Positions 607-13,755 of a stretch of 17,581 bases of DNA are shown one piece after another. Within the stretch, counting starts at the first letter, position 1. Each line of letters starts with the position of its first letter. This stretch comes from Candidatus Heimdallarchaeota archaeon (GTDB lineage Archaea; Asgardarchaeota; Heimdallarchaeia; Heimdallarchaeales; Heimdallarchaeaceae). The stretch covers positions 1-17,581 of the forward strand of contig JAAFKJ010000007.1 of the NCBI GenBank assembly GCA_021399395.1. The letters run 5' to 3'. The translations under genes and the position numbers were made by a program. Below the pieces are notes generated by a model. The model was given only the letters and a program-made list of their open reading frames with translations, ran no database searches and was not told the origin of the DNA.

Positions 607-1836
607 ATGAAGTTGTTGTTTATTGTGATGGATGGTCTTGGAGATAGACCTATCAAAGAATTAGATGACAAAACTCCTTTGGAATATGCTCACACACCTA
701 ATATGGATAAATTTGCATCAATGGGGATGAATGGATTGCTGCATGTTATTAGCCCAGGAGTTACCCCAGGAAGTGATACTGCCCATCTAGCATTATTTGG
801 AGTAGACCCATATAAATATTATACAGGTAGAGGTCCTTTTGAAGCTGCTGGAATTGGACTAGAAGTCAAACCAGGCGATATTGCTTTTAGAACAAACTTT
901 GCCACAATAAATTCGGAAGATATAATCACAGATCGGAGAGCAGGTCGGATTAAAAAGGGAACAAAAGAACTAGCCAAACTTCTTGAGAAAATGGAAATAG
1001 ATGGTGTTAAAATCCTATTAAAGGCAGGAACTGAACATAGAGCTGCTTTAATTCTTAGGGGAGATGGATTATCTGATAAAATCTCTGAGAATGATCCCCA
1101 TGTTGAAGGTAAAGGACCTTTAGAATTCAAACCACTAGATGACAGTCCAGAAGCACAAAAAACAGCAAGAATATTAACTTCATTTGTGATGAAAGCCAAG
1201 ACTTTGTTATCAAATGCAGAGCTAAATATAAGTAGAGAATCACAAGGATTGCCCCCTGCAAATTATCTACTCATCAGAGGAGCTGGTAAAGCTCCCAAAG
1301 TACCAAACTTTGAGGAAGAGTATGGTTTGGAATCAGCTTGCGTTGCAGGAGGTGGACTTTACAAGGGAATTGGAAGAATGCTAGGGATGAAGATTATAGA
1401 AGATCAGAGACTGACTGGAGGTACAACAACAGATCTGTCAGCTAAATTTGATGTAGCTTTGGAAACTCTTGAAAAATTCGATTTTGTATTTACTCATGTT
1501 AAAGGAACCGATAACTTCTCACATGACGGTAATCCAGTGGAGAAAATGAAATTCATTGAAAAAATTGACGAAGAACTGTACAGATTCCTTCCAGAGAATT
1601 TCAAAAATGATCTTGTAGTTATGATAACTGGAGATCACAGCACTCCTTGTTCTTTCAAAGATCATTCAGCTGATCCTGTTCCTGTTGTTATTTATTCACC
1701 AGACTGTCGCGTAGATAAAGTGGAAAAATTTGGAGAAAGCTATGCTACAGATGGTAATTTAGGACATCTACTAGGAAAACATTTAATGGGTATCGTTCTA
1801 AACGAATTAAGACTGGTGCACAAATTTGGAGCATAA
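607..1836 (+). CDS. apgM: 2,3-bisphosphoglycerate-independent phosphoglycerate mutase, archaeal type
   Basis: Motifs 'MDGLGDRP', 'TPLEYAHTPNMD', 'PGSDTAHL' (phosphoserine), 'YTGRGPFEAAG', 'HVKGTD..SHDG', 'TGDHSTP', 'HSADPVP', C-terminal 'KFGA'. Confidence 0.95.
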   Translation: MKLLFIVMDGLGDRPIKELDDKTPLEYAHTPNMDKFASMGMNGLLHVISPGVTPGSDTAHLALFGVDPYKYYTGRGPFEAAGIGLEVKPGDIAFRTNFATINSEDIITDRRAGRIKKGTKELAKLLEKMEIDGVKILLKAGTEHRAALILRGDGLSDKISENDPHVEGKGPLEFKPLDDSPEAQKTARILTSFVMKAKTLLSNAELNISRESQGLPPANYLLIRGAGKAPKVPNFEEEYGLESACVAGGGLYKGIGRMLGMKIIEDQRLTGGTTTDLSAKFDVALETLEKFDFVFTHVKGTDNFSHDGNPVEKMKFIEKIDEELYRFLPENFKNDLVVMITGDHSTPCSFKDHSADPVPVVIYSPDCRVDKVEKFGESYATDGNLGHLLGKHLMGIVLNELRLVHKFGA

Positions 1837-2812
1837 TACTGAAGAAGAAGTAACGCTATTTAAAAGATCATTACCTTATCTTCAGCTATTTTTGGCGATT
1901 GTATCCGTTTCCTTCTCTGCAATTATAGTGGTATTTCTTCTTGCTGAAGGAGTTCCTCCTGAAGTAACAGCAATGTATCGTACATTTTTCGCAGGAATTG
2001 GAGCTTTAATCTTTTCTCTCTACAAGAAGAAATTCAAGTGGATTGGAAAGAAATCTACTATCAGCAGATATCATTGGATCTTGTTTTCTGGGTTTCTTCT
2101 TGCTGTTCATTTTGCTACTTGGTTCATATCATTAGACTATGTTAACGTCGCTATTTCTACAACTATGGTTGATACAGTTCCTATTTTTCTAGCAATATTC
2201 GGTTTTATTTTCTTCAAAGAGAAGATTAAAACTATTGGAATACTTGGTATAGCTATAGCTTTTACTGGAGGAATCTTACTAGCATTTTTCTCAGATGAAT
2301 CAGGTTCAACTCAAACAAATCTGCTTTTGGGAATAACTTTTTCCCTAATTGGAGCCTTAACTGTGACTTTTTACTTCTTAATTGGTAAGAAGATTTTACA
2401 GGATTCTCCATTGTGGCCTTATTTTGCTTTGGTTAATCTTTCCTCTTCAATTTTCCTTCTTGTCTATAATTTAATAAGAAACTATGAGCTTTTTAGGTTT
2501 CAGAATCCTGCTCTGGTTTATGGTTTATTCATTGTCTCAGCATTGGGGCCATCATTAATAGGCCATGCTACTTACAATTATTCTTTGAGAAAATTACCTG
2601 CATATGTTGTAGGTGTAGCGATTTTAGGCGAACCTATAGGTGCGACAATACTTGCTGTTCTTATTTTTCCTTCAACCCAAACCCCAGATCCCATAACAAT
2701 TCTATTTGCGGTCATTATTCTGTTGGGGATAGTAATGACATCAGTTTCACAATATCTACGTGTAAAGCTATTCTCAAGAAAAAAGGAAAAATTAGAAGAA
2801 AAACCGAGTTAA
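1826..2812 (+). CDS. DMT/EamA family transporter
   Basis: About 10 hydrophobic segments in two repeats; 'LAVHFATWFISL', 'PIF...FFKEKI', 'GHATYNYSL', 'LGEPIGATILA'. Overlaps the apgM stop by 11 nt (TTG start, start uncertain). Confidence 0.9.
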   Translation: MEHNTEEEVTLFKRSLPYLQLFLAIVSVSFSAIIVVFLLAEGVPPEVTAMYRTFFAGIGALIFSLYKKKFKWIGKKSTISRYHWILFSGFLLAVHFATWFISLDYVNVAISTTMVDTVPIFLAIFGFIFFKEKIKTIGILGIAIAFTGGILLAFFSDESGSTQTNLLLGITFSLIGALTVTFYFLIGKKILQDSPLWPYFALVNLSSSIFLLVYNLIRNYELFRFQNPALVYGLFIVSALGPSLIGHATYNYSLRKLPAYVVGVAILGEPIGATILAVLIFPSTQTPDPITILFAVIILLGIVMTSVSQYLRVKLFSRKKEKLEEKPS

Positions 2813-4014: not shown

Positions 4015-4171
4015 CTTACATGTTTCCTTTAGTTTGAGAGAAGTAAAATATTTGGAAAAATAAAATTATTGGTTTAACCCTCAGTCATTTTCTCGATTGA
4101 TCTAACTTACTATTCCCCGGATATTACATCTATAAATAAAACACTCATCTAGTTATTTTCTTAAATACTGG

Positions 4172-5581
4172 GTGTTATGTTTGCCGGCAATATCTAGTTG
4201 TAGTTTCTGTAATGGTCCCGCTCAATACTACTGTAAGTCATGCAAGAGAAGACTGTGTTCTGAGCATATCAGGATTTCTAATACAGTATATCACTGTGCT
4301 ACCTGTGATACGGAAGGGTTTGATTCAAAGTGCCTAAAATGTGGTTCTTTTACAACTGTGATGAGACATGAACCAACTCACACATGTGAATGGTGTAAGT
4401 CCTCGGATGTAGAAGATGGACTTCTATACCATCAACAATTACCTCATTTAATTTTCTCTTCTTTCAATGAGCTTAATAAAAAACTCTCAGAAGTATGGGA
4501 CTTAACACAACAGTACCTTAATACTGTCAAGTCAGTTTTTGAAATGAGAAAAGCTCGAATAATGCTTTTTGGCTCTGTAGAAGATGAGATCACACTACTT
4601 AGGGGGAAAATCTCTACTTTCATTGACCAACTTGTGAAATTTGAAAATGATACTTTTTCTATGGTTGATGATAAACTTAAAACTATTGGTTATATGCGTT
4701 TTACAAATCTAGATAATATAGAGAAAGCAGAAGAAATTTTGAACCTATTGCAATCTAGATTAGATCTGTTAGATACTACACTGGGTGGTAAATTCAAAGA
4801 TATAGAAAATGATTTCACCAGTTTAAATAACAAAGTTAATTTCTTAGGTTTCCAACACAGGCTACTTAATCGTATTCACAGTCTATTACCAGAAGACAGA
4901 GATGAACATCTGATATCTATTATTCCTAGAATCTGGTTGAAGAAGAATAATAGATTTTATAAGAAATATCTACTTGTTCTAACAAATAGAAATATCTATT
5001 TTTTGAGAGAAAAAGGATTATTTGATGTAAAATTAAAATCTAAAGAAACATTAAGTCTTTCCTATATTATAAGTAAAAAATTTGTATCAAGGTTACTTTC
5101 AAGGAATATGCTTAATTTCAAAACTCGATTGGATTCCTATACTCTTTTAGGAAGAAGAGAAAGTTTAAGCCAATTTATGATCTACTTCCATATAATTGAA
5201 AATTACATCGATTATTCAATTCATAAATCTTCAATAATAGAAGATTTGAAGCATTACTCTTTAACTATTAATGAGTTAAAAACCAACATCCAACGTAATG
5301 TTAGTCACTTGAGAGCCTATTTACTAAATAAACGTGAATTGAAGCGAGAATTATATTGGCGAGAAGGACAAGATGCTAGATTCAAGAAACTCTTTGAACA
5401 ATTGCTTTCTGTTGAAAGAAAGATACACAGATTAAATGAATCTAGAACAGATGGAACTCGTGGAACTAGAGGAATTGATGGTCTATTAAGGAAACTAACC
5501 AGAGAACATACAAGATTAAAACAACAGCTAGATACTGTTCAACAAAGAAGTGAAGAGTTCGATGATAAGTGGGAATTTTGA
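4172..5581 (+). CDS. Multidomain protein: B-box-like Zn finger, further CxxC Zn ribbons, long helical/coiled-coil region, PH/GLUE-like domain, C-terminal steadiness-box-like hairpin
   Basis: N-terminus CxxC-x7-CxxC-x4-CxxH, then CATC/CLKC/CEWC; about 150 aa of heptad-rich helix; 'YLLVLTNRNIYFLREKG' typical of PH-fold GRAM/GLUE/bPH domains; C-terminal hairpin aligned by eye to TSG101 SB. The ORF is secure but the domain calls are inference. True start may be the in-frame TTG at 4181. Confidence 0.7.
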   Translation: MLCLPAISSCSFCNGPAQYYCKSCKRRLCSEHIRISNTVYHCATCDTEGFDSKCLKCGSFTTVMRHEPTHTCEWCKSSDVEDGLLYHQQLPHLIFSSFNELNKKLSEVWDLTQQYLNTVKSVFEMRKARIMLFGSVEDEITLLRGKISTFIDQLVKFENDTFSMVDDKLKTIGYMRFTNLDNIEKAEEILNLLQSRLDLLDTTLGGKFKDIENDFTSLNNKVNFLGFQHRLLNRIHSLLPEDRDEHLISIIPRIWLKKNNRFYKKYLLVLTNRNIYFLREKGLFDVKLKSKETLSLSYIISKKFVSRLLSRNMLNFKTRLDSYTLLGRRESLSQFMIYFHIIENYIDYSIHKSSIIEDLKHYSLTINELKTNIQRNVSHLRAYLLNKRELKRELYWREGQDARFKKLFEQLLSVERKIHRLNESRTDGTRGTRGIDGLLRKLTREHTRLKQQLDTVQQRSEEFDDKWEF

Positions 5582-5616: not shown

Positions 5617-5913
5617 TTGATAATCATGCCTAAGAAGAAAAGCACTTTCAATAGACTAACTTGGGTTTTAACAGAATTAGTCTTTGGTTTAGCTGGATTA
5701 ATTTATGGTTTATTGGGTACAATTTCATCTGAAGTTAGAGTAACGTACATTATTTTACTCTCATTAGGTGGAGTTCTACTAATTGTAGCCACAGTACAAC
5801 TGATTATCTACTTCAAGAAGAAAGAGAAAATCTACTGTGCAAAATGTGGTGAAAGGATTAAGAAAAATGATGAATTTTGCTCTAAATGTGGAGAAAAAAT
5901 AGAAGAGAAATAA
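5617..5913 (+). CDS. Small membrane protein (2 TM) with C-terminal zinc ribbon
   Basis: Two hydrophobic segments followed by 'YCAKCGERIKKNDEFCSKCGEKI'. ATG at 5626 is the likelier start. Confidence 0.8.
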   Translation: MIIMPKKKSTFNRLTWVLTELVFGLAGLIYGLLGTISSEVRVTYIILLSLGGVLLIVATVQLIIYFKKKEKIYCAKCGERIKKNDEFCSKCGEKIEEK

Positions 5914-5926
5914 AGATAATCTGTCT

Positions 5927-6310
5927 TTATTTTTTCCATACTTTCAGGAAATCAGGCATTTCTTCAAAAGTAACAAGTGGGATATTTAACCACTTAGCAT
6001 CAGAAGCATCATTGGAGAAATTGTGTTCCTCCTTAGGAGATGTTCTATACCGTAGAAAAGACTCTCGAGAATTGCTTTCATCTTCAACCCATACAATAAT
6101 TGGAAGTGCATTCAATTCATAATAACCTAAACTTGTGTTAAAGATGAAATATATGGTTTTATCATTATAACTATGACGGCCTATATATCCTGCATTCCTA
6201 TCTGGACCTAAACCAGAGATTACCAATTTTATTAAATCGCTAAGAGATGAAAGTTTGATTCCTGCTGGAGGTTTGAGTATTTTAGTTTCTTCTGTCAAGA
6301 TAATCACCAA
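5927..6310 (-). CDS. Conserved archaeal hypothetical protein, co-oriented with atpK
   Basis: 127-aa ORF starting 21 nt after the atpK stop. 'IKLSSLSDL...YYELNALPIIVWVE...FLRY...IPLV' resembles, from memory, the small 'cren protein' family of TACK archaea. Confidence 0.65.
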   Translation of the reverse strand: MVIILTEETKILKPPAGIKLSSLSDLIKLVISGLGPDRNAGYIGRHSYNDKTIYFIFNTSLGYYELNALPIIVWVEDESNSRESFLRYRTSPKEEHNFSNDASDAKWLNIPLVTFEEMPDFLKVWKK

Positions 6311-6331: not shown

Positions 6332-6640
6332 TTAGAATACAATCAAAATTGCAACTAGTAATCCATAAATAGCTACAGCTTCTATAAGCACAACAAACAG
6401 AAAAGCTTTTCCAAAGATATCTGGTTTCTCTACGATGGCTCCTATTGCTGCGCTCCCTGCCATTCCCATTCCGATGGAAGCAGCTGCTCCTGCAATGCCA
6501 ATTGCTAATGCAGCACCAATTGGTTTTAAATCGACGGGTTCAGGATCTTGAGCTTGTGCCAAATTAGAGGCTAAGATAATCAAAGTCACACTAATTACTA
6601 ACAATCCTAAGATTCGAGTTGTTTTCTTTTTTAATAGCAT
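6332..6640 (-). CDS. atpK: A/V-type ATP synthase proteolipid subunit K (c)
   Basis: 'IGAALAIGIAGAAASIGMGMAGSAAIGAIVEKPDIFGKAFLFVVLIEAVAIYGLLVAIL' is a single hairpin with the conserved ion-carrying Glu. N-terminal signal-like extension. AGGTG RBS upstream. Confidence 0.95.
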   Translation of the reverse strand: MLLKKKTTRILGLLVISVTLIILASNLAQAQDPEPVDLKPIGAALAIGIAGAAASIGMGMAGSAAIGAIVEKPDIFGKAFLFVVLIEAVAIYGLLVAILIVF

Positions 6641-6791: not shown

Positions 6792-7406
6792 ATGTTCCGG
6801 GACTTTATGGGATGGCTTCTAGGTTCAAAAAAGAGCCCTCGTGACCACATCATTAACCTTAGGTTAACTGTAAGAAGATTGGAAAGAGCACAGAGAAAAT
6901 TATCTCGTGATGAATCTAAGATGCAGTTGAAGATGAAACAAAGTATACAACGAGGCGACCTTGAATCTGCTAGATTATTTGCTACAGATATTGTTAGAAA
7001 TAGACGATGGGAATTTGGTTATCAAAAACTAGTTTCTAGAATGAATGGACTTATCTTCAAACTAGAGCGAGCAGATACTGCTGCTAGCATGGCACAAGAA
7101 ATGCATGGCATTGCTTCTGCTTTAAGAACAGCAAATGCACAATTACAAATTCCTGATCTGGATAGAGTTATTCAAGATATGGAGAGCTCTATAGATGGTA
7201 TTGAAGAATCAACTGGAACTATCGAAGATGGGATAGAAGATTTATTGGTAGCTGACTCAGATCCTGCTGAAGTTGATCGATTGATCGAACAAACAGCTGC
7301 TGAGTTGGGAGTATCTACTCAAGCTGGATTACCTTCTGTTGGAGTCATAGAAACCGACGATTTAGAAAATGAAATACAGAAATTAAGGAGAAAAGAAGAA
7401 GATTAG
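6792..7406 (+). CDS. ESCRT-III subunit, Vps2/24/46 class (ESCRT-IIIA, Snf7 superfamily)
   Basis: 'LRLTVRRLERAQRKLSRDE...MKQSIQRGDLESARLFATDIVRNR' matches the Vps2/Did2 helical hairpin; acidic C-half; terminal 'DDLENEIQKLRR' MIM1-like helix. Confidence 0.93.
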   Translation: MFRDFMGWLLGSKKSPRDHIINLRLTVRRLERAQRKLSRDESKMQLKMKQSIQRGDLESARLFATDIVRNRRWEFGYQKLVSRMNGLIFKLERADTAASMAQEMHGIASALRTANAQLQIPDLDRVIQDMESSIDGIEESTGTIEDGIEDLLVADSDPAEVDRLIEQTAAELGVSTQAGLPSVGVIETDDLENEIQKLRRKEED

Positions 7407-7420
7407 AAAGGTGATTTATC

Positions 7421-8071
7421 ATGGTTAAAAATTGGCTTTTTGGAAAGAAAAGGAAGGAAGATGCAGACGCATTGGCTACACTTAAATCTCAACAGAATAG
7501 ACTTCAAGCAGAAGCAAGAAATCTTGAAAGACAATCTGATGAACAAAAAGTTTTAGCTTCTAAAATGCTTCAGGCAGGTAATAAAGCTGGTGCTCGCCAA
7601 GCTCTTAAAAGAAGAGCTGTTTTCATGAAACGGCTTAACACAGTTCATAATACTGCTATGAATCTGCAAGCTCAAATTGATAGTATTCAAACTGCTACCT
7701 CAACAGCTGAAACAGTACAAGCTATGGAACTTGGTACAAAAGTTGTTGGTGAGAAAATAAAAGTCGTATCTCCTGAGAGAACAGAGAGGGTTATGGATAC
7801 AGTTATGGAACAAAGAGATCAAATTGAGATGATGACAGAAGCTCTTTCCGATCCTGCTTTATCTGAGGGGATCTTAGACTTTGAAGATGATGCTGCTATC
7901 GATGAGCAATTAGCTCAATTAGAAGCAGAAATGGATCTTGGTACAACTACAAGTCTTCCAGATGTTACTGGTTTGCCATCAACACCTGTTGGCACAGAAA
8001 AGGAAGAGGATACCTCTGATCTTGAAGCTGAACTTGAAGGTCTGAAAAAGAAAATGAGTGAAGATAACTAA
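7421..8071 (+). CDS. ESCRT-III subunit, Vps20/32/60 class (ESCRT-IIIB, Snf7-like)
   Basis: 'WLFGKK' N-terminal anchor; 'GNKAGARQALKRR' (cf. Snf7/CHMP4 NKRAALQALKRK); 'NLQAQIDSIQTA'; 'IDEQLAQLEAE'; 'LPDV..LP' MIM2-like. AGGTGA RBS at about 7409-7414. Confidence 0.95.
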   Translation: MVKNWLFGKKRKEDADALATLKSQQNRLQAEARNLERQSDEQKVLASKMLQAGNKAGARQALKRRAVFMKRLNTVHNTAMNLQAQIDSIQTATSTAETVQAMELGTKVVGEKIKVVSPERTERVMDTVMEQRDQIEMMTEALSDPALSEGILDFEDDAAIDEQLAQLEAEMDLGTTTSLPDVTGLPSTPVGTEKEEDTSDLEAELEGLKKKMSEDN

Positions 8072-8161: not shown

Positions 8162-9310
8162 GTGTCCGCTCAAGGTTTAATAGATCATGCTAGAGATTTT
8201 GCAATAAAAGCATATAATTTTGATAAAGAAAAAAATTACAGTGAAGCAATTCCATACTATTTGGATGCTGCAGAGGCGTTAATGAAAGCTATTAAATTTG
8301 AGCGAAATCCACAAGTTGCTCGTTCATTAAAAAAGAAAGCTGAAATGTATATTAGTAGATCTAAAGAATTACGTGATCTCCTTGAGAGAAAAAAAGAGCG
8401 AAGATCTTCTGCTGGTAGTGACGATGAAGAAGAAGATAAACTCGAAGGAGCTATTTCTGATATAATTGTAACTGAAAAACCTAATATAACTTTAAATGAA
8501 ATAGCAGGATTGGAAACTGCTAAACAAACACTTCGTGAAGCAATTGTCTTACCTTTAATGAGACCAGATCTGTTCTCAGGAGCGAGAAGACCTTGGAAAG
8601 GTATTCTTTTATTCGGACCTCCCGGTTGCGGTAAAACACTTCTAGCCAAAGCAACTGCAGCAGAAGTAGAGGCTACTTTTTTCAATGTGAGTGCATCTTC
8701 GATTATCTCTAAATGGCTTGGAGAATCTGAAAAGCTAGTTCGAACCCTTTTTGAACTTTCACGTGAGAAACAACCAAGTATCATTTTTATCGACGAAGTT
8801 GATGCTCTAGCTGGAGCTAGAGGTGGTGAACATGACGCGATGAGGCGAGTCAAGACTGAATTATTGACTTCAATGGATGGACTCTCAAGTTCAGAAAAAG
8901 ACCGAATTGTAACAGTAGGTGCAACCAACATGCCTGAAGCTATAGATGGGGCATTTCGAAGAAGGTTTGAAAGAAGGATTTACATACCATTACCTGATTT
9001 TCCAGCTCGTGCTGCAATATACGGTTTTAATACAAAAGGCGTGGATTTGGCGGATGAAGTTGATTTTGAGGTTCTTGCCGAAATTACAGATGGTTATTCA
9101 GGGTCAGACATTGCTATGGTTTGTAGAGAAGCGATCATGACACCTATACGTGAATTAGATATGGCTGGAGCAATCGATGATGTCTCAATAAAAGCAAGAG
9201 CTGTAACTCAAGATGATTTCATTGAAGCCATAGAAGCAATTAATCCTTCTGTTAGTGATGATGAGATCGAAAAATATGATCAATGGAACGAAGAATTTGG
9301 CAGCGCATAA
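8162..9310 (+). CDS. vps4: Vps4 AAA+ ATPase with N-terminal MIT domain
   Basis: MIT ('AIKAYNFDKEKNYSEAIPYYLDAAEAL...YISRSKEL'), 'RRPWKGILLFGPPGCGKT' (Walker A), 'SKWLGESEKLV' pore loop, 'IIFIDEVD' (Walker B), 'RRVKTELL', 'ATNMP..IDGAFRRRFERRIYIPLP', C-terminal 'WNEEFGS'. GTG start with GAGG RBS. Confidence 0.97.
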   Translation: MSAQGLIDHARDFAIKAYNFDKEKNYSEAIPYYLDAAEALMKAIKFERNPQVARSLKKKAEMYISRSKELRDLLERKKERRSSAGSDDEEEDKLEGAISDIIVTEKPNITLNEIAGLETAKQTLREAIVLPLMRPDLFSGARRPWKGILLFGPPGCGKTLLAKATAAEVEATFFNVSASSIISKWLGESEKLVRTLFELSREKQPSIIFIDEVDALAGARGGEHDAMRRVKTELLTSMDGLSSSEKDRIVTVGATNMPEAIDGAFRRRFERRIYIPLPDFPARAAIYGFNTKGVDLADEVDFEVLAEITDGYSGSDIAMVCREAIMTPIRELDMAGAIDDVSIKARAVTQDDFIEAIEAINPSVSDDEIEKYDQWNEEFGSA

Positions 9311-9323
9311 TTAAGAGGTCTCC

Positions 9324-10085
9324 TTGATGTCTACAACAGAGAAGAAAAAGCCTAAGAAAGAGAAAAAATCCTCAATTGATTTAAAACAACTCAAAGCTGA
9401 GAAACAAGTATCTGAAGAGAAATTAAAATTAATTGAAGCTAGTATAAAGGGTTTAGAAATTTCTGAGAATGATTTGAAATCCACACTTCCTGTTGAAACT
9501 ATTATTAGAGTAAAAGATGATTTGTCAAAAGATCAAAGAGCAGTTCTTGAGTTAGAATTTGATGAAGCCTTGCCAAAATGGGTTAAGGCTCCATGGATGT
9601 TCATAAAACCACCAAAAGGTGATCAGATTGAATCTTGGTTGGAAAGCTGGTCAGCAATAGTACTTGATTACTCTCGAATTTTTGTAATTCATGTAATTAA
9701 TATCAATGATCTTAGAACAGTACACCCATTTAACAATAAAAAGATAGGAAAAAGACTAACTGTTGAACAAGTTAGGGATGTAATTGACCATTTAGTTAGC
9801 CAGAATATTGCACGTTGGCTTGATGAAGATAAGAAAACCCGTGCAAGAATATACTGGAAATCTAATGAAGAATGGGCTGATAAACTTCTAGGTTTTATGA
9901 TAGAAACAGGAAGGGTTGTTGAAATCCAATCTCTATATGATTTAACACAACTTGAAGAAAATTGGAGCAATTTACCCGCAGATGATATGGTTATTGTATG
10001 TGAAATGCTGGTGGAACGTAAAGTTGCTAGATGGCTAAATAAAGATAAGACCATTATACAATTTGAAGCAGATAAAGTATTTTAA
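9324..10085 (+). CDS. vps25: ESCRT-II subunit Vps25-like with N-terminal extension
   Basis: 'PWMFIKPP...WLESWSAIVLDY', 'PFNNKKIGKRL', 'IYWKSNEEWADKL', 'SLYDL' correspond to conserved Vps25 winged-helix blocks. ATG at 9327 is an alternative start. Confidence 0.9.
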   Translation: MMSTTEKKKPKKEKKSSIDLKQLKAEKQVSEEKLKLIEASIKGLEISENDLKSTLPVETIIRVKDDLSKDQRAVLELEFDEALPKWVKAPWMFIKPPKGDQIESWLESWSAIVLDYSRIFVIHVININDLRTVHPFNNKKIGKRLTVEQVRDVIDHLVSQNIARWLDEDKKTRARIYWKSNEEWADKLLGFMIETGRVVEIQSLYDLTQLEENWSNLPADDMVIVCEMLVERKVARWLNKDKTIIQFEADKVF

Positions 10086-10098
10086 AAAAAGAAGGGTT

Positions 10099-10836
10099 TT
10101 AAAGACCCAACAATCCTGGGAACCAAAACTTCGTTCCTTCCGAGTAGCTTCGATCAACTCTAGCTATACCATGCTCTTCGAAGAATTTCAAACTTCTATC
10201 GATTCTTTCTTCTGTCCAATCAGTTTTCATGAGTAAAGCTTCTTTGGTTATAAAGCCCTCTCGAGAAGCGTAATTCAGTATTATATCATGATCTGTGCTG
10301 AACTCTACAGTGGTAAATTCTAAAATCTTCACACCAGAATCTAATACCCTATAGGGCGGTAATAACTGTGAATTAATCAATTTATCAATTGAACGTCTCA
10401 AATCATCTATTGAAACCATTCTACCAGGACGAATCTTATTCAATTGAGTAAAAAGTTCTCCAATTGCAATTATACCTCCATTCTCTGGAGTTAAACTCTG
10501 TCCTAATTCCAAGATTTCATTTGCTAAAACATCATAGAAACCTTTCCCTGTTAGCTTATCTTTGAGTGTTGGTGATTCTTTCCAATCATAACGACCAATC
10601 TCAGTGGGTAAACCTAACTCTTCCCTTAAATCAGCTAATTTATCGTAATAATCTTTATTACCAGAGATTTTGTCTCCATATTTCTTTTCGAATTTCTTCA
10701 ATTGCTTCTTAACTTCACTGATATTGTTTATCATCTGTTCAAGTTCTTTAATCATTAATTCTGCATCTTTCACCTGAAATGCAGACTTAATCTTGATTTT
10801 CTTTTCAATATCTCTTAAACCCACTTCAATCTCCAC
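10099..10836 (-). CDS. vps22: ESCRT-II subunit Vps22/Vps36 (EAP30 domain)
   Basis: 'FEKKYGDKI', 'ELGLP', 'GFYDVLANEILE...ENGGII', 'VSIDDLRRSIDKL', 'DH..IL', 'WTEERIDRSL', 'ARVD', 'FWFP' follow Snf8/EAP30 over the whole length. GTG start. Confidence 0.93.
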   Translation of the reverse strand: MEIEVGLRDIEKKIKIKSAFQVKDAELMIKELEQMINNISEVKKQLKKFEKKYGDKISGNKDYYDKLADLREELGLPTEIGRYDWKESPTLKDKLTGKGFYDVLANEILELGQSLTPENGGIIAIGELFTQLNKIRPGRMVSIDDLRRSIDKLINSQLLPPYRVLDSGVKILEFTTVEFSTDHDIILNYASREGFITKEALLMKTDWTEERIDRSLKFFEEHGIARVDRSYSEGTKFWFPGLLGL

Positions 10837-10888: not shown

Positions 10889-11221
10889 CTAGAACAAACT
10901 TGGTAATTTGAGTAACCATTTATTGATTTTTTCAGTCAGCAAATTTCTTTCTTTAGAAGATAAAAATGCAGCTAACTTATTTTGATACTTTTTGAGAAGA
11001 GATCTGTAAATATCATTCATCTCTTCAAAAATCCTCTCTCCTTCTCCTCCCACTTTCTTTAACTCTAGTGAAAGTTCTTCTAATTCCTCTAAAATATACC
11101 CTACATCTATTCTTATCTCTACCATATCAGCTAATTCGAATAGTTCTTTTCGAATAGAGACATACACATTGTTCATAGGGCTAGTTCTTTCCATTTTTGC
11201 CACCAAGTTGTTGAATTTCAA
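10889..11221 (-). CDS. Small alpha-helical protein; probable stand-alone Vps28 C-terminal-domain paralogue
   Basis: Fills the gap between ESCRT-I and vps22 in the same orientation and aligns by eye with the last ~90 aa of the upstream gene (see findings). Start uncertain (TTG 11221, GTG 11203, ATG 11194). Confidence 0.65.
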   Translation of the reverse strand: MKFNNLVAKMERTSPMNNVYVSIRKELFELADMVEIRIDVGYILEELEELSLELKKVGGEGERIFEEMNDIYRSLLKKYQNKLAAFLSSKERNLLTEKINKWLLKLPSLF

Positions 11222-11255: not shown

Positions 11256-12668
11256 TTATAGTTCTTTTAATAATCTTCTGAAATCATTTAGCCATCTGGC
11301 TGCTTGGAATTCTAGTTTCTCACAATCCTCTTCTTTAATTACATCCTGTGGATTGTACTTTGAAATTATATCTTTCCAATTATTCATATCATCAATAGCC
11401 CAATGATCTTTTGGAATAGATGGAAATGTTTTCAAGATATGAAGCATTTCATCAATATCTGCAAGTAATAAGTCGGCTCTTGCCACTGATTTTAGTCTAG
11501 TTAAATCTATTAATTCAATGGCTGAAGAAACAAAGTCTGCAGTTTTTGATGGCATTTTCTTCAATGTGTCAAATGGTATAGACACACTTTCAGTAGTTTC
11601 AACTCCTTCAGCATTTCTTAACTGTTTGATGCCTTTGGGATATTTCTTCTCGATACCTTCTCTGCGAAGGAATGCTTCTAAATTGAATCCAATTTTTTCC
11701 AATTGTAATCTGGTTTTGAAGATAGCTCTGATTAGGGCTCTCAATTGTTTTCTATAAGCAATCTGCTCTATTTCATTATCTTCATATCCCTCAATTAAAG
11801 TATTCAGAGTAGCTATAGATGCAAATAAATCTGCTTCTAAATCCAGTATTCTTTCATCTCCTTTTGTCATGTCACCACTTGATTTAGTTTTAACTTGGTT
11901 AAGCTGTTTTTCAGCTATAAAACCTTTTTTCGTGTATCGTTTATGTAATTTTAGATATTCAATGTTTGTCATATCTCCATCTTCGAATTTCTCTTCAACC
12001 ACTTCTAATGTGCCTTGAATAGCAACAAATTCTGCTTGAAGATCTTCTTCTCTAGAGATTGTTATCTCCTTAGATTTTGCTTCAAAAGCAATTCCGCCCT
12101 CTTTCAGAAGTGCCTCTCTCTCATCTTCTATCTCTCTAGATATATTTTGAATTTCGCTCTGATATTCAACAATTGAGTCATCCAAATTTCTTTTTTCTGC
12201 GACCATTTGAGGACTACTTGATGAAGCTAAGGAAACCTGAGGCAGTTCTTTTATAGGTATTTTTGAAATAGTTAAACCTGTATGTCTTTCATCTCTTTTT
12301 GCTTTCTTAGCTTTTGTTTTGTAAGTTTTAGCAGTAACAGTTTCAAATAATTTCTTAATGTCTTCAATTATCTGGTAAATATGAAAACTTGCCTGCCATT
12401 CAACTAAAATACGTAAGCTCAAAGATCCATCATCATCTACATTAGGGTGATTTATTTTTGGAGTTATATCAACAAATGGCGGAACTTCAGGAAAACCGTC
12501 TTGGACATATATGTTGGCAAATATTGGTATATCAGTACCTTCTATCGTACCCACATATCCTTTCCATTGTTTAAGATTCCCTCTAACGGGTTCAAAATTC
12601 ATCTGTTTATCAAATATTAATTGCATTTCATTTGCGAGTAGGAAATCGTCTGGGGAAATTTTGTTCAC
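11256..12668 (-). CDS. Single-chain ESCRT-I: UEV (E2-like) domain, coiled coil, Vps23 steadiness-box hairpin, Vps28 N- and C-terminal domains
   Basis: E2 fold 'FPEVPPFV...NHPNVDDDGSLSLRILVEW' lacking the catalytic Cys; 'AIQGTLEVVEEKFEDGDMTNIEYLK' SB-like; 'ADLFASIATLNTLIEGYEDNEIEQIAY' Vps28-N; 'ADFVSSAIELIDLTRL...W....KYNPQDVIKEED..KLEF' Vps28-C. GTG start. Confidence 0.88.
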   Translation of the reverse strand: MNKISPDDFLLANEMQLIFDKQMNFEPVRGNLKQWKGYVGTIEGTDIPIFANIYVQDGFPEVPPFVDITPKINHPNVDDDGSLSLRILVEWQASFHIYQIIEDIKKLFETVTAKTYKTKAKKAKRDERHTGLTISKIPIKELPQVSLASSSSPQMVAEKRNLDDSIVEYQSEIQNISREIEDEREALLKEGGIAFEAKSKEITISREEDLQAEFVAIQGTLEVVEEKFEDGDMTNIEYLKLHKRYTKKGFIAEKQLNQVKTKSSGDMTKGDERILDLEADLFASIATLNTLIEGYEDNEIEQIAYRKQLRALIRAIFKTRLQLEKIGFNLEAFLRREGIEKKYPKGIKQLRNAEGVETTESVSIPFDTLKKMPSKTADFVSSAIELIDLTRLKSVARADLLLADIDEMLHILKTFPSIPKDHWAIDDMNNWKDIISKYNPQDVIKEEDCEKLEFQAARWLNDFRRLLKEL

Positions 12669-12747: not shown

Positions 12748-13755
12748 TTAATCCTTTATCTGAAGCACTACTTTTATTGGCTTGGCTAAGTTATTATCTA
12801 TGATGTAAGCAATCGACTTGGATTGTTTAATTACTTCTTTGATTACTTTATCTGGACTTATTATGGTTCCTTGTATCATAATATCGGGTTTAGCAAGTCC
12901 GTAAGTTAGTATTAACCTCAAAATCAGGTCCTTGACTGACTCTTCAGAATTTACAACAAATTCTATTTGTTCTAATTTGTAAAGGTCACCACAAGTTGGA
13001 CATTCCTCTGATCTAACTAGTTCAATTATTGTGGTTGCATTATGTAAACCATCATAAAACATGTAATTTTCTAAAATACTACCAATTCCAAGTAAGAGTT
13101 TCAAAGCTTCTTGAGATATAAACCCAGCAATTATAGACGATAATGTAGCAACTGCAGGTAAAGGTGGTTCCTTTTCTATTTCTTCCTCTCTCTCTTTCTT
13201 CCTTTCTTCTCCAAAAGGAGTACAAGCTTGTGCTAATTCTTCATCAGGTACCAGGGGCTGGCATTCAAAACATGCTGTTTCATGTGGCTTTATCACTTGA
13301 ACATTACCCAAGAAAGCAAACATTCCCCCCATAACTAATGGAGCATTAACTCTAACTGCCATTGAATTTATCCATCTTCTTCCGATAAATGTGTCTAGAC
13401 AAGCAATGATTACATCAGCTTCTTCATATATGGAAACGGAAACTTCTTCCATTTTTTTGTGGATAAAATCAATTTCGCATTTAGGATTTAAATCTCGTAA
13501 TCTTTCTGCAGCTATTTCAGATTTGGATTTCCCTACATCTTTATCTCTAAAGAGAAGTTGTCTGTTCAGATTGGAAACTTCAATAGTATCAAAATCAATG
13601 ATGATCAGTTTTCCTATTCCTGAAGATACTAGAATTGTTGCGACATAACTGCCTATTGCTCCTGCACCAACAAGAACAATGGTACTTCCACTCAACCTAT
13701 CTTGATCCCATCCTGGGATGAGCATTTGTCTGGAATAGCGATCTTCATCATTCAT
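12748..13755 (-). CDS. Ubiquitin-activating enzyme E1 (ThiF/MoeB superfamily, Uba2/Uba3-like layout)
   Basis: 'DRYSRQ', 'VGAGAIG', 'DFDTIEVSNLNRQLLF', 'GKSK', Zn pairs 'CFEC' and 'CPTC', candidate catalytic Cys in 'AQACTP', and a ~75-aa C-terminal extension resembling a ubiquitin-fold domain. Adjacent to ubiquitin. Confidence 0.92.
   Translation of the reverse strand: MNDEDRYSRQMLIPGWDQDRLSGSTIVLVGAGAIGSYVATILVSSGIGKLIIIDFDTIEVSNLNRQLLFRDKDVGKSKSEIAAERLRDLNPKCEIDFIHKKMEEVSVSIYEEADVIIACLDTFIGRRWINSMAVRVNAPLVMGGMFAFLGNVQVIKPHETACFECQPLVPDEELAQACTPFGEERKKEREEEIEKEPPLPAVATLSSIIAGFISQEALKLLLGIGSILENYMFYDGLHNATTIIELVRSEECPTCGDLYKLEQIEFVVNSEESVKDLILRLILTYGLAKPDIMIQGTIISPDKVIKEVIKQSKSIAYIIDNNLAKPIKVVLQIKD

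Follow-up and report, generated by a model that had tools for sequence, protein, structure and literature searches.

The gene at positions 4172..5581 (+ strand) of the 17,581-nucleotide stretch analysed here (the window) belongs by homology to the Asgard-wide family Znr_CC_PH_SB, as its orthologue in Heimdallarchaeaceae, and we put at roughly 60% the probability that its product serves the ESCRT machinery as a peripheral membrane adaptor. The family as a whole probably tethers this membrane-cutting machinery to membranes. Among known archaea, Heimdallarchaeia stand nearest to eukaryotes, and Asgard archaea are not known to have a Vps36 GLUE domain, Vps37 or ESCRT-0 that would explain how their ESCRT complexes find a membrane. 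The protein described here is a useful component of a kind already described, and it leaves the published picture unchanged in kind; the additions are the placement of Heimdall cog.006820, a truncated AB_125 gene model, ESCRT-III as the conserved genomic neighbour and a rare EAP30 fusion.

The family was published as Znr_CC_PH_SB (also written Znr_PH_CC_SB), cog.011556, by Makarova et al. 2024 (mBio 15:e00335-24), who see in it “a likely ESCRT-I component” whose PH domain should associate with membranes. An earlier note on this DNA had arrived at an ESCRT-linked membrane adaptor, in agreement with that inference for the homologous family. In Table S2 of the same work, the Heimdall orthologue is entered under a separate asCOG, with no SB (steadiness box) and no ESCRT flag. 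A literature search outside the subscription journals met the names and asCOG numbers of the family in that paper and in one 2023 preprint, which uses cog.011556 solely as a source of SB sequences, and found no experimental study of the Znr_CC_PH_SB family.

The gene and its Asgard-wide family

Reading of the sequence bore out the open reading frame of the earlier note as real: it encodes 469 aa on the + strand from a GTG start at 4172. An alternative TTG start at 4181, which yields the “MPAI...” N-terminus seen in relatives, is likely the true one, and a candidate TATA-box-like element, TATAAATAA (4131..4139, + strand), lies ~35–45 bp upstream of the start codon. The window’s own genome has one full-length copy of the gene. 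In Heimdall AB_125, whose proteins are those used for Asgard ESCRT biochemistry (Hatano 2022), the deposited gene model, HeimAB125_13980, is truncated at its N-terminus.

We found 18 close homologues of the target, and a first profile (A1) matched 36 cluster representatives, the distant ones over profile positions 6–385. A second profile (A2) matched 386 of the 400 Asgard genomes, 337 of them at E < 1e-20, as well as 87 of 90 high-quality genomes and 82 of 85 genera; nearly all Asgard archaea thus carry the family. One alignment covers all parts of the target and of the distant family members, and full-length homology (E 1e-7 to 1e-19) links the target to proteins whose C-termini match Vps23_core, among them P0042, P0043 and P0046.

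We place Heimdall cog.006820 in the published Znr_CC_PH_SB family. As in cog.011556, with whose members the comparison was made by description, three zinc sites, a helical region, a PH domain and a C-terminal hairpin follow one another in the same order in an Asgard-specific protein, and profile homology extends over the full length of proteins that share the architecture and have a recognisable Vps23_core hairpin; unlike in cog.011556, the hairpin of the target no longer scores as Vps23_core. Most likely, cog.006820 also belongs with Thor cog.002441. The locus L079, which we identified with cog.002441 from gene order and lengths and not from sequence, has the Thor gene order of the published description (Vps24, an opposite-strand 1,578-bp gene, TldD, TldD), and the family profile recognises its product at E ~1e-111. 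The difference lies in the middle domain, which the published description gives as a winged helix, whereas close Thor-type relatives (P0048) show a weak bPH_3 match and no winged-helix match.

N-terminal zinc modules and helical region

The domain reading of the earlier note, namely a zinc module, a coiled coil, a PH/GLUE-like fold and an SB-derived hairpin, holds along the length of the protein. The first zinc module (residues 10–45; 4199..4306, + strand) has eight ligands with B-box/ZZ-like spacing (C10, C13, C21, C24, C29, H32, C42 and C45), of which position 32 is histidine in the target and cysteine in other lineages. The second (residues 54–75; 4331..4396, + strand) is a C4 zinc ribbon built on invariant cysteines (C54, C57, C72 and C75), with beta-hairpins at 47–49 and 62–72 in the structure models. 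Eleven of the 12 zinc-ligand positions in the target are cysteines that are invariant across 29 phylum-wide sequences, and the N-terminus holds three zinc sites, as in the published definition of Znr_CC_PH_SB. The AF2 domain model of the zinc region reaches a pLDDT of 87.8.

The helical (“coiled-coil”) domain (residues 83–238; 4418..4885, + strand) comprises three long AF2 helices (83–127, 134–171 and 181–238), in keeping with the coiled-coil/long-helix part of the published definition. At the first turn of this domain R126 is invariant and E137 near-invariant phylum-wide. Its fold search returned generic helical-bundle matches only.

The zinc module of the earlier note is thus borne out by the invariant cysteines, while its B-box identity is not, since the Pfam scores of the target fall below the cut-offs (ANCHR-like_BBOX 20.2 bits vs 27; zf-B_box 14.7 vs 24.1). 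Sub-threshold B-box matches recur in 10 of 15 subfamily members and in many distant ones, and ZZ, B-box and RING modules are the best fold matches of residues 1–85, tied at Z ≤ 4.0. The resemblance to TRIM proteins drawn in the earlier note goes back to these same scores and fold matches, which do not establish it. We also weighed a reading in which the protein is a TRIM-like scaffold of the ubiquitin system or a DH-PH-like regulator of small GTPases that lies beside ESCRT genes through conserved gene order alone, and we regard it as very unlikely. The Ras-like GTPase genes that flank the homologue in family f7 would suit such a regulator, as would the top Foldseek matches of the whole model, which are DH-PH RhoGEF tandems (E 3e-5). 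These tandems were rejected, however, at TM 0.17–0.30 and rmsd ~20 Å (12–18 Å when aligned by VIA), because the PH domain together with helices of any kind accounts for the matches, and none of the 46 family members scanned has a RhoGEF match in Pfam. The target is also without a RING, its relatives have either a canonical SB or EAP30, and the linkage to ESCRT genes recurs across sampled families as detailed below, all of which argues against a scaffold or GTPase regulator.

The PH-superfold domain

Residues 239–345 (4886..5206, + strand) form a PH-superfold domain of the bPH/GRAM/GLUE-like sequence type, as the earlier note had proposed. In the AF2 model a beta-sandwich plus helix occupies residues 247–343, with the PH-like motif quoted in that note inside it (266–278); this region is continuous, and the zinc modules lie N-terminal to it. 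Aligned with VIA-align, residues 235–350 match several PH-superfold families at Z 9.6–10.1, in line with the PH domain of the published family: the PH domain of Trio (Z 10.1, rmsd 2.6, 105 residues aligned), the GRAM-PH domain of MTMR2 (Z 9.6) and the EAP45/Vps36 GLUE domain 2dx5_A (Z 9.6, rmsd 3.3, 96 of 99 residues aligned), the GLUE score being tied with those of other PH domains. Profile comparison of the region with the PDB gave the bacterial PH protein 3dcx at E 0.0048 and the Vps36 GLUE domain 2cay at E 0.84. With Pfam, PH_PLEKHM2 is weakly matched in 6 of 15 subfamily members; among the relatives, P0044 exceeds the cut-off for bPH_3, and there are weak matches to GRAM and Vps36_ESCRT-II, the latter appearing in P0053 only (22.0 bits vs a cut-off of 24.1). 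The EAP30 protein of the window itself is without a PH or GLUE domain by Pfam, as had been stated.

A probable diverged steadiness box at the C-terminus

The PH domain is followed by a helix (residues 346–394; 5207..5353, + strand) that has the highest conservation within the subfamily (mean pairwise identity 0.83 vs 0.63–0.70 in the other domains) and low model confidence (AF2 pLDDT < 50 for residues 353–390). Next comes a helical hairpin (residues 395–460; 5354..5551, + strand), read from AF2 and from hhalign comparison with relatives as a probable diverged steadiness box, with one helix to 423, a loop at 424–432 and a second helix from 433. Within the subfamily, conservation of the hairpin and of the helix before it equals or exceeds that of the globular domains. 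The protein ends in an acidic/aromatic tail (5552..5578, + strand) with the consensus E-F-D-D-M-W-E-F, which is conserved in the close family.

Both its position and the profile comparisons show that the target hairpin corresponds to the bona fide steadiness boxes of the relatives, and its SB homology is transitive, running through family members that match solved Vps23/TSG101 cores. The hairpins of the target and of the distant family align by hhalign at Prob 93.6 (E 2e-7), and at 87.8 (E 3.3e-6) in a second run. The distant hairpins in turn reach the yeast Vps23 core at E 5.3e-8 and TSG101 (6vme_B) at E 6.1e-7 in a PDB profile search, solved Vps23/TSG101 cores being the top 4 of 49 PDB matches, and 15 of 19 of them match Pfam Vps23_core while 3 of 19 touch Pfam CdvA.

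Direct comparisons gave no such link. With E values of up to 1 allowed, neither Vps23_core (PF09454) nor Mod_r (PF07200) matched the target or a single one of 15 subfamily members; the profile of the target’s own subfamily did not match TSG101; and the 28 PDB matches of the close-family hairpin profile were coiled coils only, with no ESCRT-I chain. The whole-protein profile returned chance-level PDB matches only (BCL10 E 0.32, dynactin E 1.2), and the hairpin fold search found generic helical hairpins, such as designed proteins and the CHMP4B hairpin; the lack of ESCRT-I core chains among the 50 matches listed speaks neither for nor against a link. Compared with the headpiece hairpins of ESCRT-I (Vps23/TSG101, Vps37 and Vps28), the target likewise ends in a helix-loop-helix of ~55–65 residues after a long helix; it differs in the missing direct sequence match, in its longer loop of 9 residues and in the absence of the G-x-I-x-x-E-x-Y/F signature, and it has no UEV domain. 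With the signature lost and the loop lengthened, the hairpin may therefore have changed partner or function.

The UEV-Vps28 fusion and the ESCRT-I headpiece

The earlier note had aligned a C-terminal segment of the target, correctly placed at nt 5396–5542 (residues 409–457), without gaps to a hairpin of the UEV-Vps28 fusion encoded at 11256–12668 on the − strand. The pairing with fusion residues 212–260 has 8 identities in 49 positions and a BLOSUM62 score of 22, and it ranks first among 422 offsets in the fusion and first among 3,634 49-mers in the 21 other proteins of the window; the second-best offset (279) falls on the second hairpin of the fusion. Its register is also that of the transitive hhalign alignment. 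On its own, however, the gapless pairing is only marginally above chance: BLASTP of the target against the fusion gave no significant pairing and rated this one at E 22 (13.1 bits). Of 300 shuffled fusions, 4 reach the same BLOSUM62 score.

That the fusion has two SB-like hairpins was upheld by hhalign against the distant-hairpin profile. The Vps23-type SB hairpin used in the alignment (SB1; fusion residues 195–265; 11874..12086, − strand) scored Prob 96.7–97.5, and the second (SB2; residues 266–338; 11655..11873, − strand), which is the N-terminal part of the Vps28 region, scored 93.7–94.1, against Prob < 5 for all of ten helical/coiled-coil controls. Pfam finds VPS28 at 279–467 of the fusion and a weak Vps23_core at 271–325. 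Compared directly with these two hairpins by hhalign, the target hairpin gave Prob 0.3–0.5.

Does the target, then, contribute a third hairpin to an ESCRT-I headpiece in Heimdall, its hairpin packing on the two of the fusion in place of Vps37 and its PH domain anchoring ESCRT-I? We consider this unlikely. The fusion does have exactly two SB-like hairpins, the transitive SB homology runs in the register first noticed, Vps37 is absent from Asgard archaea according to Hatano 2022, and the family was itself proposed as an ESCRT-I component by Makarova et al. 2024. Set against this are the lack of direct profile similarity between the target and fusion hairpins, and the behaviour of the fusion, which dimerises by itself, the third position in Odinarchaeota being filled by a Vps23 dimer (Hatano 2022). 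The same genome further encodes a second UEV-SB protein with a canonical SB, and the conserved neighbour of the family across Asgard is ESCRT-III, not ESCRT-I (Vps23/Vps28). The “third hairpin” of the earlier note is not shown: the target hairpin has no direct Vps23_core, Mod_r or ESCRT-I chain match, the genome has other SB donors in the second UEV-SB protein and, marginally, the Vps22 N-terminus, and across Asgard the gene adjoins ESCRT-III rather than ESCRT-I. A complex prediction of target residues 340–469 with fusion residues 135–340, each with its own alignment, scored 0.00 against a mark of 0.32, and with controls absent it speaks neither for nor against binding. Elsewhere in the window, hhalign found no SB similarity in orf110 (10889–11221) or in the Vps25 N-terminus (Prob ≤ 1.8).

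Linkage to ESCRT-III and proposed role

Downstream of the target lie two ESCRT-III (Snf7) genes, at 6792–7406 and 7421–8071 (together 6792..8071, + strand; Pfam Snf7 E 4.9e-18 and 3.2e-23), the first beginning 1,211 bp after the end of the target gene, which agrees with the 1.2 kb given earlier. The AB_125 orthologue sits in the same position relative to the ESCRT-III genes. Within Heimdallarchaeaceae this synteny is uninformative, because the order of phosphoglycerate mutase, permease and aminotransferase genes is equally conserved, and in a sister genus 33 kb separate the gene from ESCRT-III. Across Asgard, where the earlier note had pointed to synteny as a check, a Snf7 gene lies 15 bp to ~4 kb from the homologue in 10 of 15 sampled GTDB families (f1, f5, f11, f12, f13, f14, f19, f26, f31 and f33), and immediately adjacent (15–640 bp) in f11, f12, f13, f19, f26, f31 and f33, genome G368 included. 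In the other five families (f4, f7, f16, f17 and f20) no ESCRT gene was found within ~9 kb by phmmer with the window proteins, which may miss divergent ones.

In Sulfolobales, CdvA is the membrane-binding recruiter of the ESCRT-III homologue CdvB. The target resembles it as a putative membrane-binding protein with a coiled coil encoded beside ESCRT-III; it is unlike CdvA, which has a PRC barrel, in having zinc modules plus a PH domain, and Pfam CdvA found no match in the target or in 15 subfamily members. A CdvA-like or Vps36-like nucleator, which would sit on the membrane by its PH domain and recruit ESCRT-III directly or dock on Vps22 as a Vps36 “in trans”, with ESCRT-I uninvolved, is possible but doubtful in our estimate. 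Points in its favour are the immediate Snf7 adjacency in seven families, the position of the neighbouring Snf7 gene far from the EAP30 gene in G116 and G142, the existence of a Znr-CC-PH-EAP30 fusion, the CdvA matches of a few distant hairpins and the SB-CdvA hairpin similarity reported by Makarova et al. 2024. The N-terminus of Vps22 is only marginally SB-like here, though (Prob 4–28), no ESCRT-III-binding motif was identified in the target, and the EAP30 fusion is rare.

The peripheral membrane adaptor that we favour has several candidate partners. Its PH domain, whose beta1-beta2 loop is basic and whose core motif is GRAM/GLUE-like, would bind the membrane; the helical region would oligomerise; and the zinc module would bind a protein, perhaps ubiquitin or cargo that carries it. 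The SB-derived hairpin and the highly conserved helix before it would dock onto another ESCRT component, for which the UEV-Vps28 fusion, the second UEV-SB protein, the Vps22 N-terminus and ESCRT-III itself are candidates, and this docking would bring the ESCRT-II/III assembly to the membrane. Such a role would cover that of the Vps36 GLUE domain or of ESCRT-0 in eukaryotes. With a conserved PH domain and an SB-derived hairpin encoded 1.2 kb from ESCRT-III, and with an AB_125 orthologue placed likewise, the protein is therefore a concrete candidate for reconstitution and interaction work.

Comparison with Vps36

Eukaryotic Vps36/EAP45 combines a GLUE domain carrying NZF zinc fingers with EAP30 winged helices. 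The target is like it in having a PH-superfold module plus zinc fingers in an ESCRT setting, and the Vps36 GLUE domain is among its best structural matches, although GLUE is not distinguished there from other PH domains (tied Z scores; 2cay at E 0.84). It is unlike Vps36 in having no winged-helix/EAP30 part and in the position of its zinc modules, which are N-terminal and not inserted in the PH domain. In a rare relative, P0053, a module of the target type is fused to EAP30, the hairpin being replaced by EAP30 winged helices (EAP30 E 1.8e-11, Vps36_ESCRT-II E 1.8e-4). A more far-reaching reading, which we offer as a long shot, would make the Zn-CC-PH-SB protein the missing “GLUE half” of Asgard ESCRT-II: its hairpin would dock on the Vps22 N-terminus or another SB protein, fusions of the Znr-CC-PH-EAP30 type would record the partnership, and eukaryotic Vps36 could descend from such a fusion, while in Heimdallarchaeaceae the hairpin and helix 346–394 may have switched to ESCRT-III. 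The fusion occurs in three clusters (P0053–P0055), and Vps22, rather than Vps36, is the closer match to the EAP30 portion of the fused relative.

Gene content of the locus

The Pfam-annotated genes mark the window as an ESCRT-ubiquitin locus from a Heimdallarchaeaceae genome, with two Snf7/ESCRT-III genes (6792-7406 and 7421-8071), Vps4 (8162-9310), Vps25 (9324-10085), an EAP30/Vps22 protein (10099-10836, minus strand), a UEV-Vps28 fusion (11256-12668, minus strand) and a ThiF-type E1 (12748-13755, minus strand), as well as a Ras-family GTPase and a Roadblock protein. The EAP30/Vps22 protein carries no PH domain by Pfam, in agreement with the earlier note, which had described it as lacking GLUE. 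The open reading frame of interest (4172-5581, plus strand, 469 aa) and the peptides quoted from it lie where that note had placed them, and 1,211 bp separate the end of the frame from the first ESCRT-III gene (1.2 kb in the note). Three small genes lie in between: a 98-aa transmembrane plus zinc-ribbon protein (5617-5913, plus strand; found in 14 of 26 close loci), a conserved uncharacterised frame (5927-6310, minus strand; arCOG04275 in the AB_125 table) and a lone V-type ATPase c/K subunit (6332-6640, minus strand).

Predicted fold and zinc module

An AF2 model built on an alignment of 15 close homologues (mean pLDDT 71.2) predicts small beta elements in residues 1-82, long helices at 83-127, 134-171 and 181-238, a beta-sandwich capped by a helix at 247-343, and long C-terminal helices with a final hairpin (366-423, loop 424-432, 433-468). 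When compared with 48,161 chains using VIA-align, residues 235-350 superposed on PH-superfold domains, including those of Trio (Z 10.1, rmsd 2.6, 105 aligned), CARMIL, P-Rex1, Bcr and MTMR2 GRAM-PH (Z 9.6), and on the EAP45/Vps36 GLUE domain (2dx5_A; Z 9.6, rmsd 3.3, 96/99 aligned). Since these scores (Z 9.6-10.1) are tied, the fold is that of a PH domain and not specifically GLUE. The hairpin matched only generic hairpins by the same method.

Across 29 sequences from the phylum, 11 cysteines are invariant and position 32 is either H or C, and thus the N-terminal module has three zinc sites. When residues 1-85 were modelled on their own (pLDDT 87.8), the result matched ZZ, B-box and RING modules with Z of at most 4.0, and this predicted fold is weakly compatible with a cross-brace module. 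B-box matches in the 31 of 36 family proteins scanned with Pfam were sub-threshold. A motif at residues 126-142 (window 4547-4597) occupies the turn joining the first two long helices; within it, R126 is invariant phylum-wide and E137 nearly so.

The C-terminal hairpin

The earlier note had aligned a 49-residue C-terminal segment without gaps to a steadiness-box (SB) hairpin of the fusion. This pairing, which covers residues 212-260 of the fusion, scores 22 under BLOSUM62 with 8 identical positions; it ranks first among 422 fusion offsets, ahead of offset 279, which is the fusion's second hairpin, and also tops 3,634 49-mers from the other 21 window proteins. However, its score was reached by 4 of 300 shuffled fusions and BLASTP gave 13.1 bits (E=22), and the sighting is therefore real yet statistically marginal.

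Further evidence came from hhalign on segment alignments excised from the fetched loci, comprising 27 hairpins of the target subfamily and 26 of distant family members. The two sets matched each other at Prob 93.6 (E 2e-7, 72 columns; Prob 87.8, E 3.3e-6 with a second hhalign implementation), and the distant hairpins matched fusion residues 195-265 (Prob 96.7, E 3.8e-10) and 266-338 (Prob 93.7, E 2e-7). The register of this two-step alignment is the gapless one reported earlier. Searched against the PDB, the distant-hairpin profile retrieved the yeast Vps23 core (2f66, E 5.3e-8; also 2p22 and 2caz) and human TSG101 (6vme_B, E 6.1e-7), Vps23-core and TSG101 structures being the top four of 49 matches, and 15 of 19 distant hairpins matched Pfam Vps23_core. 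The target's other helices, the fusion stalk, the ESCRT-III hairpins and the Vps25 N-terminus remained below Prob 5, as did orf110, a 110-aa protein between Vps22 and the fusion (10889-11221, minus strand) that has no Pfam match and shows no SB similarity; in Table S2 of Makarova et al. 2024 the orthologue from AB_125 carries the description 'Vps28 protein, C-terminal region' (cog.004115). The link of the target to SBs runs through the distant hairpins and is not direct: the target hairpin scored Prob 0.3-0.5 against each fusion hairpin, and its subfamily profile found no ESCRT-I chain among 28 PDB matches and no Vps23_core or Mod_r model in Pfam. On these profile comparisons it is probably a diverged SB whose signature motif is gone and whose loop has nine residues.

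Conservation of the hairpin within the subfamily equals that of the globular domains. The most conserved segment in Heimdallarchaeaceae is helix 346-394 (window 5207-5353; mean pairwise identity 0.83), and AF2 confidence in 353-390 is below pLDDT 50; the helix may serve to bind a partner and fold only when bound.

A published family across Asgard archaea

A word-indexed search returned 18 close homologues, all from Heimdallarchaeota and unnamed or 'hypothetical', while a profile run against 1.84 billion representatives extended these to 36 proteins. Distant members (440-680 aa) align to profile positions 6-385, the zinc, helical and PH parts. Among the 31 members scanned with Pfam there were bPH_3 matches (P0044 above the cut-off), weak GRAM matches, and C-terminal Vps23_core in P0042, P0043 and P0046. 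A profile built from 24 close and distant members matched 386 of 400 Asgard-phylum genomes (337 with E<1e-20), including 87/90 high-quality genomes and 82/85 genera, and the weaker matches cluster in a few lineages, GTDB family f5 among them. The window's own genome has a single full-length copy.

The protein belongs to a published kind, which the earlier note had read correctly, and its Heimdall lineage had been filed apart. Makarova et al. 2024 (mBio 15:e00335-24) describe the Asgard-specific family Znr_CC_PH_SB (cog.011556), with three zinc ribbons, a coiled coil, a PH domain and an SB, as 'likely to be ancestral in Asgardarchaeota' and 'a likely ESCRT-I component'. In their Table S2 our protein's AB_125 orthologue, HeimAB125_13980, appears at 765..2072, whereas family homology on that contig (MEHH01000089.1) spans 669-2069; the model begins 96 nt (~32 codons) late and so omits six of the 12 zinc ligands. 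Gene order and exact gene lengths in one of our loci (L079) equal their Thor neighbourhood, and the family member there (8958-10535, minus strand) is credited with winged-helix domains by Makarova et al. 2024, whereas its close relatives gave weak bacterial-PH matches here. One family appears to be divided over three asCOGs (cog.011556, the Thor cog.002441 and the Heimdall cog.006820). The literature searched yielded no experimental work on it.

Linkage to ESCRT-III and possible role

The order running from the target through ESCRT-III, Vps4, Vps25, Vps22, the fusion and E1 recurs in 23 of 26 Heimdallarchaeaceae loci (the remaining three contigs stop earlier), although this says little because upstream housekeeping genes are equally conserved. 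A phylum-wide comparison is more informative. Homologue coordinates were set against those of Snf7 and EAP30 in five complete genomes, and twenty 14-20 kb regions and five genomes of GTDB family f5 were examined as well. Homologue and Snf7 gene lie 15 bp to ~4 kb apart in 10 of 15 GTDB families (f1, f5, f11, f12, f13, f14, f19, f26, f31 and f33). The f5 homologues (G071:C14:32622-33575, G074:C11:126657-127586 and G057:C10:31238-31828) are divergent proteins of ~450 aa without the zinc module, aligning to profile positions 143-461, and lie 1.6-4 kb from the two Snf7 genes of those genomes. In four families (f4, f7, f16 and f17) no Snf7 gene was found within ~9 kb of the homologue, the distance is 180 kb in f20, and in a sister genus within the window's family ESCRT-III is 33 kb away. 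In two complete genomes a long distance separates the Snf7 gene adjoining the homologue from the EAP30 gene. The family thus recurrently neighbours ESCRT-III and not ESCRT-I. At two f7 loci (L068 in G084, L069 in G081) Ras-like GTPase genes flank the homologue on either side, with no ESCRT gene within 9 kb.

In function, the PH domain would bind membrane, as Makarova et al. 2024 also expect, the zinc module would take a protein ligand, and the C-terminal helices would dock onto an ESCRT partner. The earlier proposal, a three-hairpin headpiece shared with the fusion's hairpins, is one option for that partner, which we regard as unlikely. Direct action on ESCRT-II/III is at least as likely, though itself doubtful. 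The fusion dimerises in the Heimdall case described by Hatano et al. 2022. Outside the window, the same genome encodes a second, 218-aa UEV protein (L029:1069-1725, plus strand, contig C18; UQ_con E 1.2e-9, UEV E 3.9e-4) whose C-terminal hairpin is canonically SB-like (hhalign Prob 88.6-94.7 against the distant-hairpin profile); it is a free Vps23-like protein and could occupy the third position of the headpiece.

A variant fused to EAP30

Hatano et al. 2022 report neither Vps37 nor Vps36 from Asgard archaea. A rare variant of the family (P0053, P0054 and P0055), found as three clusters only in a 5.8-billion-protein set, has EAP30 winged helices in place of the C-terminal hairpin; in P0053, Pfam matched EAP30 (E 1.8e-11) plus Vps36_ESCRT-II (E 1.8e-4). 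One such protein of 601 aa (L077:9001-10806, plus strand; G298, family f26) adjoins an ESCRT-III gene. The order zinc module, coiled coil, PH and EAP30 is Vps36-like; the winged-helix part is closer to Vps22/SNF8 than to Vps36.
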